From Escherichia coli (GTDB lineage: Bacteria > Pseudomonadota > Gammaproteobacteria > Enterobacterales > Enterobacteriaceae), in the NCBI RefSeq assembly GCF_003018255.1, contig NZ_CP027440.1: a stretch of 64,000 nucleotides of DNA; one strand, 5' to 3'. The notes below the pieces were generated by a model. The model made no database searches. It had not been told where the DNA came from and saw nothing but the letters and a program-made list of their open reading frames with translations. This document shows positions 7,187 to 24,340 of the stretch, in pieces. The translations under genes were made by a program, and so were the position numbers. Position 1 is the stretch's first letter. Every line of letters begins with the position of its first letter.

Positions 7187-7209
7187 AAGATGCATTTTAA
7201 ATGCATCTT
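7187..7209 (-). promoter_or_regulatory. NsrR operator (11-1-11 palindrome) in the ytfE promoter
   Basis: AAGATGCATTT-T-AAATGCATCTT, perfect inverted repeat 27-49 bp upstream of the ytfE start codon; matches the NsrR binding motif as I remember it. Confidence 0.8.
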
Positions 7210-22164: not shown

Positions 22165-22174
22165 TAATAAAAGC

Positions 22175-22200
22175 ACGCCACCTTCGGGTGGCGTTGTTTT
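22175..22200 (+). terminator. intrinsic terminator of the tamAB-ytfP operon
   Basis: ACGCCACC-ttcg-GGTGGCGT stem-loop followed by TGTTTT. Confidence 0.75.
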
Positions 22201-22543
22201 ATGCGATGTATCTCGCGATTTTTTTTGTAACTTTCCCATCTTTTGCTTTTCTCTCCGGGCCGCTTTCCATATCTGCAATCGCATAAAAAACTCTGCTGGC
22301 GTTAACAAATGTACAGGGGTAAAACGGGGACACGCTTTGAACGGTGAGTATGAGTGAGGCCGGCTAACTTCCAGCAAGTGGCTATGAACAGCAAAATGGT
22401 GGTCGAGTTTAGCTTGTTCTTACCGTTCAAGCCTTTCAACTGCTGAAAATAATAATAGTGGAGTAGAGAGTTTATAAATTGCGGGCATAAAAAAACCCTT
22501 ACTAACCGAAGCCCGGTGTTCAGGGTTATTGCGCCAGAAGAAC

Positions 22544-23074
22544 TTATTTATTCTTGGCGCGCTCGAAGGAAGCAACGATTTCAGCTTTAGCGGCTTCTGC
22601 GTTTTCCCAACCTTCAACTTTAACCCACTTGCCTTTTTCGAGGTCTTTGTAGTGCTCGAAGAAGTGAGCGATTTGCGCTTTCAGCAGCTCTGGCAGATCG
22701 TTAACGTCTTTAATGTGATCGTATTCTTTGCTCAGCTTGGTGTGCGGAACAGCAATCAGTTTCGCATCTTCACCGGCTTCGTCGGTCATTTTCAGTACGC
22801 CAACCGGACGGCAGCGGATCACAGAACCCGGCTGCAGCGGGTACGGAGTCGGGACCAGTACGTCAACCGGGTCACCGTCCAGAGACAGAGTGTGGTTGAT
22901 GTAACCGTAGTTGCACGGATAGAACATCGCGGTGGACATGAAGCGGTCAACGAACAGTGCGCCGCTCTCTTTGTCGATTTCGTATTTGATTGGATCTGCG
23001 TTAGCCGGGATCTCAATAACAACGTAGATGTCTTCCGGCAGATCTTTACCCGCAGGGACGTTGAGTAAGCTCAT
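22544..23074 (-). CDS. ppa: inorganic pyrophosphatase
   Basis: 176-aa [35 protein letters not shown], recognised as Ppa. Confidence 0.95.
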
Positions 23075-23293
23075 GTCTGTTTCCTTTAAAAATATGTGGC
23101 AAACAAGTGCCGAGTATTATAGCCAACTCGCGCCGAATGTCTTCGCTTGTTTTCGTCTTCATTTTCCTTTTTCGCCAGTTTTAAGACGGTATACAGAGCA
23201 GGAAAATCCATAACCGTAGCCGCATTTTTCATAGTGAGATGAAAGCGATTACAAACTTGTGATTAACGTTTTATTTACTTTTTTGAAGTGTGA

Positions 23294-23312
23294 TGTAACG
23301 CAATCCGTTACA
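23294..23312. promoter_or_regulatory. 7-5-7 inverted repeat upstream of ytfQ (candidate operator)
   Basis: TGTAACG-caatc-CGTTACA, about 72 bp upstream of the ytfQ ATG. Confidence 0.35.
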
Positions 23313-23383
23313 TAACGAATTGTCTATAGTTTTTTCGCGAACATCTTTTCACCAATAATAATTACCCCGACGAGGACAACCCT

Positions 23384-24340
23384 ATGTGGAAACGCTTACT
23401 TGTAGTCTCTGCAGTCTCGGCAGCCATGTCGTCTATGGCGTTGGCCGCTCCATTAACCGTTGGATTTTCGCAGGTCGGGTCGGAATCCGGCTGGCGCGCC
23501 GCAGAAACCAATGTGGCGAAAAGTGAAGCCGAAAAGCGCGGAATTACGTTGAAAATTGCCGATGGTCAGCAAAAGCAGGAAAACCAGATTAAAGCGGTAC
23601 GTTCCTTCGTCGCGCAAGGGGTGGATGCGATCTTTATCGCTCCAGTGGTAGCGACCGGTTGGGAGCCGGTATTAAAAGAGGCGAAAGATGCCGAAATCCC
23701 GGTCTTCTTGCTTGACCGTTCCATCGATGTGAAAGACAAATCTCTCTATATGACCACTGTCACCGCCGACAACATCCTCGAAGGCAAGTTGATTGGTGAC
23801 TGGCTGGTAAAAGAAGTGAATGGCAAACCATGCAACGTGGTGGAGCTGCAGGGCACCGTTGGGGCCAGCGTCGCCATTGACCGTAAGAAAGGCTTTGCCG
23901 AAGCCATTAAGAATGCGCCAAATATCAAAATTATCCGCTCGCAGTCAGGTGACTTCACCCGCAGCAAAGGCAAAGAAGTGATGGAGAGCTTTATCAAAGC
24001 GGAAAACAACGGCAAAAACATCTGCATGGTTTACGCCCATAACGATGACATGGTGATTGGTGCAATTCAGGCAATTAAAGAAGCGGGCCTGAAACCGGGC
24101 AAAGATATCCTGACAGGCTCTATCGACGGTGTGCCGGACATCTACAAAGCGATGATTGATGGCGAAGCGAACGCCAGTGTTGAACTGACGCCGAATATGG
24201 CAGGTCCCGCCTTCGACGCGCTGGAGAAATATAAAAAAGACGGCACCATGCCTGAAAAGCTGACGTTAACCAAATCCACCCTTTATCTGCCTGATACCGC
24301 AAAAGAAGAGTTAGAGAAGAAGAAAAATATGGGGTATTGA
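23384..24340 (+). CDS. ytfQ: galactofuranose ABC transporter periplasmic binding protein YtfQ
   Basis: 318-aa ORF with signal peptide; periplasmic sugar-binding fold. Confidence 0.9.
   Translation: MWKRLLVVSAVSAAMSSMALAAPLTVGFSQVGSESGWRAAETNVAKSEAEKRGITLKIADGQQKQENQIKAVRSFVAQGVDAIFIAPVVATGWEPVLKEAKDAEIPVFLLDRSIDVKDKSLYMTTVTADNILEGKLIGDWLVKEVNGKPCNVVELQGTVGASVAIDRKKGFAEAIKNAPNIKIIRSQSGDFTRSKGKEVMESFIKAENNGKNICMVYAHNDDMVIGAIQAIKEAGLKPGKDILTGSIDGVPDIYKAMIDGEANASVELTPNMAGPAFDALEKYKKDGTMPEKLTLTKSTLYLPDTAKEELEKKKNMGY

Follow-up and report, generated by a model that had tools for sequence, protein, structure and literature searches.

The control region of the ytfQRT-yjfF operon (gafABCD) of E. coli contains a 21-bp dyad, ATGTAAC-N7-GTTACAT (23293-23313, centred on base 23303; no strand is assigned to this element or to the CRP-type and GalR-type sites described below), which is near-invariant in the ytfQ promoters of the Enterobacteriaceae. 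Positions refer to the window, i.e., the whole 64-kb stretch of E. coli DNA that was analyzed, and are converted to K-12 MG1655 positions by adding 4,426,578. On balance, the position and sequence of this dyad favor a functional operator, which would be bound by a homodimer encoded in trans and would form part of the core of a ytfQ promoter of the class II, CRP-dependent type. The operon encodes the sole known furanose-specific sugar importer of E. coli and three regulators have been mapped or inferred at the ytfQ control region, yet the most conserved block in this region is left over. The palindrome adds one more example to a common class of elements; it is short and sharply defined and carries a modest chance of an unusual binding mode.

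Conservation of the palindrome in ytfQ promoters

A reading of the sequence alone had described a 7-5-7 palindrome, TGTAACG-caatc-CGTTACA, about 70 bp upstream of ytfQ and had proposed this palindrome as the site of a regulator encoded elsewhere. The window does read TGTAACGCAATCCGTTACA at 23294-23312, and its right arm ends 72 bp before the ATG at 23384. The gene assignments were also correct; ytfQ (gafA; 23384-24340, plus strand), the first gene of ytfQRT-yjfF, lies downstream and ppa (22544-23074, minus strand) is the divergent neighbor upstream, as it is across the Enterobacteriaceae sensu stricto. This region was found in 5,422 of 5,426 complete E. coli genomes. In the strain studied, the 7-5-7 palindrome extends to a perfect 8-5-8 palindrome at 23293-23313 and, with one mismatch, to an 11-5-11 inverted repeat (23290-23316) with arms at 23290-23300 and 23306-23316; this longer extension is not conserved in other genera. 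On the far side of ppa, the gap between ytfP and ppa is only ~380 bp (22165-22543). In K-12 MG1655 this gap is occupied by the chpS-chpB toxin-antitoxin pair, which is apparently missing from the strain studied and from the representative E. coli genome (L001).

By itself, a perfect 7-5-7 palindrome is not beyond chance, but its conservation exceeds chance. The 64-kb window contains seven perfect 7-5-7 palindromes, compared to 4.3 ± 1.9 in composition-preserving shuffles, and 20 of 100 shuffles contained the specific pattern with up to two mismatches. A palindrome that arose by chance and has no function would be in line with the roughly four perfect 7-5-7 palindromes expected per 64 kb. This explanation is extremely improbable, and is excluded by conservation, as it does not account for a palindrome that hardly varies and keeps its register across genera in which the flanking non-coding DNA has reached saturation with changes. 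Perfect 8-5-8 palindromes are found at six positions in the window (6468, 7188, 13764, 23293, 39443 and 57619), with 0.9 expected from shuffles.

A scan of representative genomes with YtfQ yielded 80 loci with ytfQ orthologues. The TGTAAC-N7-GTTACA core was found upstream of ytfQ in 22 Enterobacteriaceae, including Escherichia, Citrobacter, Enterobacter, Pseudocitrobacter, Phytobacter, Superficieibacter, Mangrovibacter and a Pluralibacter species, among others. The core is located 86-91 bp from the ATG in all of these except RIT691, in which an insert of ~113 bp downstream of the promoter moves the core to 200 bp from the ATG. Counted by promoter, 23 of 24 enterobacterial ytfQ promoters carry the exact 6-7-6 core and the remaining one carries it with one mismatch; no 6-7-6 core was found outside the ytfQ promoters in the 579 kb of retrieved loci. 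Among 21 aligned promoters, identity is 97% in the arms ATGTAAC/GTTACAT, 77% in the 7-bp spacer and only 29% in the 5 bp 3' of the right arm. Conservation in orthologous promoters, on which the sequence-only reading had made its proposal depend, is thus a property of this palindrome, which is near-invariant across the orthologues. The insert in Enterobacteriaceae bacterium RIT691 (L013, ~2830-2950) separates the conserved promoter block from the ribosome-binding site, giving a longer leader.

The conserved unit differs from the palindrome as it was initially described. The arms of the 7-5-7 palindrome are conserved, but its inner G...C pair is variable; CAATCT-GTTACA, in which a T breaks the inner pair, is found in K-12 MG1655 and in the representative E. 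coli genome. Since the inner pair is not conserved, the functional unit is taken to be the 7-7-7 dyad ATGTAAC-N7-GTTACAT centered on 23303. This dyad is confined to the Enterobacteriaceae sensu stricto; its arms are missing from the ytfQ upstream regions of the Erwiniaceae, Pectobacteriaceae, Yersiniaceae, Aeromonas and Vibrio.

Overlap with a CRP-type site and the probable core promoter

The left arm of the palindrome occupies the 6-bp spacer of a CRP-type site, aagTGTGAtgtaacGCAATccg (23286-23307, centered on 23296.5), which reads TGTGA-tgtaac-GCAAT, with TCATT as the right half in other genera. The TGTGA is invariant and abuts the palindrome on its left, such that its A is the first base of the palindrome. 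The right half, GCAAT or TCATT, matches a TCACA-like half at two to three of five positions, and its C16 and A17 are invariant. As the invariant bases of the palindrome spacer, C and A, are those needed by the CRP right half-site, the spacer can be explained by CRP, whereas the arms cannot. In a cya mutant, ytfQ and ytfR were found to be down 3.6-fold and 5.2-fold, respectively, indicating cAMP-CRP dependence (PMC4512719). In Serratia, Yersinia, Pectobacterium and Rahnella, all of which are without the arms, a TGTGA-N6-TCAtt sequence is also found at the same position upstream of ytfQ.

Downstream of the palindrome, an invariant CTATAGT (23324-23330, plus strand) probably represents the -10 element, with a -13C. 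The distance from the palindrome center to the C of CTATAG is exactly 21 bp in 22 of 22 species, including RIT691. The CRP-type site is centered 28.5 bp before the invariant TATAGT; this would correspond to -40.5 or -41.5 if transcription starts 7-8 nt past the -10 element. We thus infer a start site at ~23337-23338, which would make this a class II CRP site at -40.5/-41.5 and would place the palindrome at -44 to -24, with its center at about -34. A search of published supplements for a measured start site yielded a RACE primer for ytfQ (PMC2760140) but no coordinate. The sequence-only reading had correctly placed the palindrome upstream of the operon, but had overlooked both its interleaving with the CRP site and its location in the core promoter. 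Neither arm qualifies as a promoter hexamer; GTTACA was rejected as a -35 element as it is only 12 bp from the -10 element, and TGTAAC was rejected as a -10 element as it is without A-11 and T-7.

The two 7-mers are conserved independently and are exact reverse complements, which argues for a dimer with two-fold symmetry. The position and strict conservation of the palindrome, moreover, are those expected of the operator of a dimeric regulator and support the earlier idea of a site for a trans-encoded regulator. Under the operator interpretation, a homodimeric DNA-binding protein encoded in trans would occupy ATGTAAC-N7-GTTACAT, with the left arm located within the spacer of the CRP site, the right arm between the -35 and -10 positions and the center near -34. 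A protein bound to this dyad would compete with CRP and RNA polymerase, and repression would therefore be its likeliest action; judging from this arrangement, a symmetric dimer would most likely act by occluding both CRP and RNA polymerase.

The same arrangement could suggest that no separate protein is involved and that the arms owe their conservation to the promoter architecture used by CRP and RNA polymerase, for example via the shape or bendability of the spacer or via discriminator-like contacts, given that the arms fall within two spacers, that of the CRP site and that between -35 and -10, and co-occur with the invariant TGTGA and CTATAGT. However, CRP spacers and promoter spacers are normally without sequence constraint, and promoter architecture gives no cause for two blocks that are exact reverse complements. 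Furthermore, Pluralibacter gergoviae has lost both arms but retains TGTGA-N6-GCATT as well as CTATAG, and the CRP-like site is likewise retained without the arms in relatives outside the Enterobacteriaceae, i.e., Yersiniaceae and Pectobacteriaceae. As these organisms keep the neighboring motifs without the arms, the palindrome is, by sequence comparison, separable from the motifs that surround it, and we consider an explanation by promoter architecture quite unlikely.

Known regulators of ytfQ and their sites

The premise that this operon has no known regulator, from which the sequence-only reading had started, was wrong, as GalR, GalS, AraC and cAMP have already been linked to ytfQ. It does hold that no regulator gene adjoins the operon (15 of 15 enterobacterial loci inspected, within 3 kb upstream). 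Regulation of ytfQ by AraC and by GalR/GalS is reported (PMC10191376, citing Stringer 2014 and Horler 2009). GalR is bound at ppa/ytfQ in vivo, with a 22-fold ChIP-chip signal that was the third strongest and with GTGGAAACGCTTACT as the listed site; at probe resolution this peak spans the whole intergenic region and does not tell the palindrome apart from the two canonical operators, O1 and O2 (PMC5110547). O2, GTGGAAACGCTTACTT (23386-23401), is the ChIP-chip site (PMC5110547, Table 3) and lies on the ytfQ start codon; it scored 18.8 with a GalR position weight matrix built from the other 18 ChIP sites of that study, which themselves scored 14.4-22.1. O1, ATGAAAGCGATTACAA (23239-23254; also written ATGAAAGCGATTACA, 23239-23253), is a GalR/GalS-type operator with a matrix score of 15.3, and this canonical operator is absent from the list in the 2016 ChIP-chip paper (PMC5110547).

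O1 and O2 are 147 bp apart, center to center, and bracket the promoter. Paired canonical GalR-type operators were found at every enterobacterial ytfQ locus examined. Their distance ranges from 132 to 249 bp among loci and helical phase is not kept; with distances so variable and unphased, we make no claim of GalR looping. A distal CRP-like sequence, TGTGAttaacgTTTTA (23258-23273), lies beside O1 and was found only in the Escherichia/Citrobacter/Enterobacter clade; the order of operator and then CRP site is the layout at mglB. With O2 lying on the start codon, the choice of synonymous codons in the signal peptide is constrained, such that in the Enterobacteriaceae Leu5 is always TTA and Leu6 is always CTT, with six codons possible for each.

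Two AraC-like half-sites, GAGCAGGAAAATCCATA and TAGCCGCATTTTTCATA (23196-23233, plus strand), form a direct repeat with a spacing of 21 bp, which is also the spacing of araI1 and araI2, and each half-site matches araI1 at 11 of 17 positions (AGC and TCCATA blocks). These repeats are conserved only in the group formed by Escherichia, Citrobacter, Enterobacter cloacae and Pluralibacter and are unusually distant from the inferred start, at about -105 to -142. In Serratia, Yersinia and Pectobacterium, AraC-like repeats identified by eye directly adjoin the CRP-like site.

With AraC sites ~60-100 bp upstream, the palindrome could in principle form an RNA hairpin (or a DNA cruciform) in a long 5' leader that starts at an upstream AraC-dependent promoter. 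The 8-bp stem and 5-nt loop would have a folding energy of -9.2 kcal/mol, but this fold is no better than that of shuffled sequences (z = -1.3; equaled by 19 of 200 shuffles). The arms, moreover, show no compensatory changes, with the GTAACA of E. cloacae representing an uncompensated arm change; the invariant -10 element lies downstream of the palindrome; no recognizable promoter was found between the AraC sites and the palindrome; and the palindrome is kept in species without upstream AraC sites. A hairpin is therefore very unlikely.

As the AraC and the canonical GalR/GalS sites lie elsewhere in the intergenic region, these regulators do not obviously account for the palindrome. The most conserved non-coding block is thus explained by none of AraC, GalR/GalS and CRP, save for the CRP bases inside it. 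Among the papers found for the ytfQ promoter and for this motif, none assigns a factor to the palindrome site. NrdR was rejected as indirect, as ytfQ appears in the NrdR study only among the proteins down-regulated upon NrdR overexpression.

A possible connection of the palindrome to GalR and GalS comes from its arms. TGTAAC and GTTACA fit the GalR/GalS consensus half-sites TGKAAN and NTTMCA, and a GGTTACA(T) half-site occurs in the galE OI, mglB, galS, chiP and cytR sites (PMC5110547). Compared to the GalR/GalS operator (GTGKAANC.GNTTMCAC), the palindrome has the same 7-bp arms, including the flanking A/T, and the same target operon, in which two canonical copies flank the promoter; its place over a CRP-dependent promoter also recalls mglB. 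The gap between the half-sites, however, is 2 bp with a central CpG in the GalR/GalS operator, whereas in the palindrome it is 7 bp, centered on a base pair and without a CpG. The palindrome is thus not a 16-bp even dyad whose half-sites meet at a central CpG; its hexamers are 7 bp apart with the dyad axis on base 23303, and K-12 reads CT where the center of a GalR operator would fall. The best 15-mer in the palindrome scored 7.2 with the GalR matrix, below all 18 training sites, and the K-12 score was lower still.

These observations bear on the interpretation of the palindrome as a third, non-canonical operator of GalR and/or GalS with a 7-bp gap and an unfolded hinge, perhaps stabilized by CRP as in CytR-CRP anti-activation. 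Within the LacI family of E. coli, we take GalR and GalS to be alone in having the V-A start of the recognition helix that reads TGTAA, and galS presumably shares with the palindrome its restriction to the Enterobacteriaceae sensu stricto. The arms are the commonest GalR half-sites, and ytfQ is both bound by GalR in vivo (22-fold; PMC5110547) and reported to be GalR/GalS-controlled (PMC10191376). On the other hand, the five extra bp put the half-sites nearly on opposite faces of the helix, the central CpG is missing and the matrix score of 7.2 (lower in K-12) falls well short of 14.4-22.1. A LacI-family dimer with a folded hinge is unable to span a 7-bp gap between half-sites, and variable half-site spacing is documented for CytR, but, to our knowledge, not for GalR or GalS. 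CytR, a LacI-family protein that tolerates non-canonical half-site spacing, does provide a parallel, as in CytR-CRP anti-activation (deoP2, cdd, udp) the site of a repressor is likewise interleaved with that of CRP, at transport or catabolic promoters that depend on CRP. CytR differs in that it reads TGCAA rather than TGTAA and usually binds between two CRP dimers ~52 bp apart, and ytfQ is no known target of CytR.

Additional copies of the palindrome were searched for in six 50-kb MG1655 segments around promoters of the gal and ara regulons (300 kb, ~8% of the K-12 genome). In these 300 kb, which include the galE, galP, galR, galS, mglB, araBAD, araC, araE and araFGH promoters, no second copy was found, and none of these promoters has a similar split site, which also argues against a split GalR/GalS operator. 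The sole match with up to one mismatch is located within the yghE coding sequence. Chance alone would give about 0.02 exact copies of ATGTAAC-N7-GTTACAT per genome. Within the sampled ~8% of K-12, no regulon supports a dedicated factor, which counts against the operator interpretation.

Given its conservation and its position, the palindrome very probably serves as the binding site of some regulator, with no known candidate having a motif that fits. We consider it unlikely that this regulator is GalR or GalS acting in a non-canonical mode, and it would otherwise be a factor outside the candidates named here. It is a tentative possibility, for the two options taken jointly, that an undescribed regulator-DNA interaction shuts off the furanose transporter in E. 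coli and close relatives. The first option would be a split operator of GalS or GalR, perhaps bound only with CRP, whose half-sites would be half a helical turn farther apart than in any known LacI-family site and which would represent a CytR-like mode for the gal repressors. The second would be an uncharacterized core transcription factor with ytfQ as its main or only target. Once the protein is named, the regulatory circuit of a transporter induced by hunger would be complete in the best-studied bacterium. The result would either reveal a new binding mode of GalR/GalS or provide both a target and a motif for one of the E. coli transcription factors, several dozen in number, that have neither.

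Comparison with the motifs of other regulators

Several regulators recognize inverted repeats that resemble the palindrome. The TyrR box (TGTAAA-N6-TTTACA) and the UvrY/GacA box (TGTAAG-N6-CTTACA) are likewise TGTAA...TTACA repeats of similar length, but have an 8-bp gap between TGTAA and TTACA, compared to an invariant 9 bp at ytfQ, where the sixth base is C/G. On the basis of spacing or half-site, TyrR, UvrY/GacA, HexR, KdgR, NsrR, IscR, ArcA, OmpR/RstA, LexA, MerR-type regulators, LysR-type regulators (T-N11-A), FNR, NagC/Mlc, DeoR and GntR/IdnR were rejected as candidates.

A closer counterpart was found outside E. coli. A metagenome scan for the 14 specified bases of ATGTAAC-N7-GTTACAT identified 80 loci, and in 8 of these an Rrf2-family gene (PF02082, E values from 1e-16 to 1e-31) lies 0-750 bp from the motif; in many cases, the palindrome contains the start codon of this gene. 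Other matches are located beside Flavodoxin_2/azoreductase, Old Yellow Enzyme and MFS genes, and some precede flavin reductases. This context suggests that ATGTAAC-N7-GTTACAT is a widely conserved operator of a YwnA-like Rrf2 subfamily in other bacteria. Since the motif occurs beside Rrf2 genes, a winged-helix dimer could read the geometry of this dyad. The YwnA-like operators, as deduced from the metagenome context, are identical to the ytfQ dyad in their 14 specified bases and in their 7-7-7 geometry and, as would be expected for a repressor, overlap either the promoter of the regulated gene or its start. They differ in that they occur in unrelated bacteria and flank their own regulator gene, a flavin reductase gene or MFS genes, whereas the target at ytfQ is a sugar transporter.

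An E. coli Rrf2 regulator, NsrR or IscR, might accordingly be proposed to bind the palindrome, as an identical motif flanks or overlaps an Rrf2 gene in 8 of the 80 metagenome matches and further matches adjoin flavin reductases. The metagenome proteins, however, are of the YwnA-like subfamily and have NPVVVRR as their recognition helix. NsrR and IscR, which we take to be the only Rrf2 proteins of E. coli K-12, presumably have helices and motifs unlike those of this subfamily, which we believe to be absent from E. coli. The NsrR operator (GATGYAT-N5-ATRCATC) is also a palindrome of ~20 bp with a GATGTA-like start that is read by an Rrf2-family protein, but on each side its half-sites, including those of the NsrR site in the window, lie nearer to the dyad by 2 bp, and its inner half-site bases are unlike those at ytfQ. 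In addition, a furanose transporter has no known link to NO or Fe-S sensing, and we regard binding by either protein as highly doubtful. The NsrR-type site in the window is a perfect palindrome, GATGCATTTTAAATGCATC (GATGCAT-N5-ATGCATC), at 7189-7207 and is presumably the operator of the ytfE promoter.

The Rrf2-linked loci in the metagenome set are L101, L114, L125, L132, L142, L143, L155 and L160, and at L114 the regulator gene is flanked by two copies of the motif. No Rrf2 gene was found near a longer, AT-rich palindrome, AACATGTAACG-N5-CGTTACATGTT, which is carried by four metagenome contigs of high GC content (62-69%; L091:6533, L158:5509, L159:11034 and L163:7432) and has the same 8-5-8 core as the window allele.
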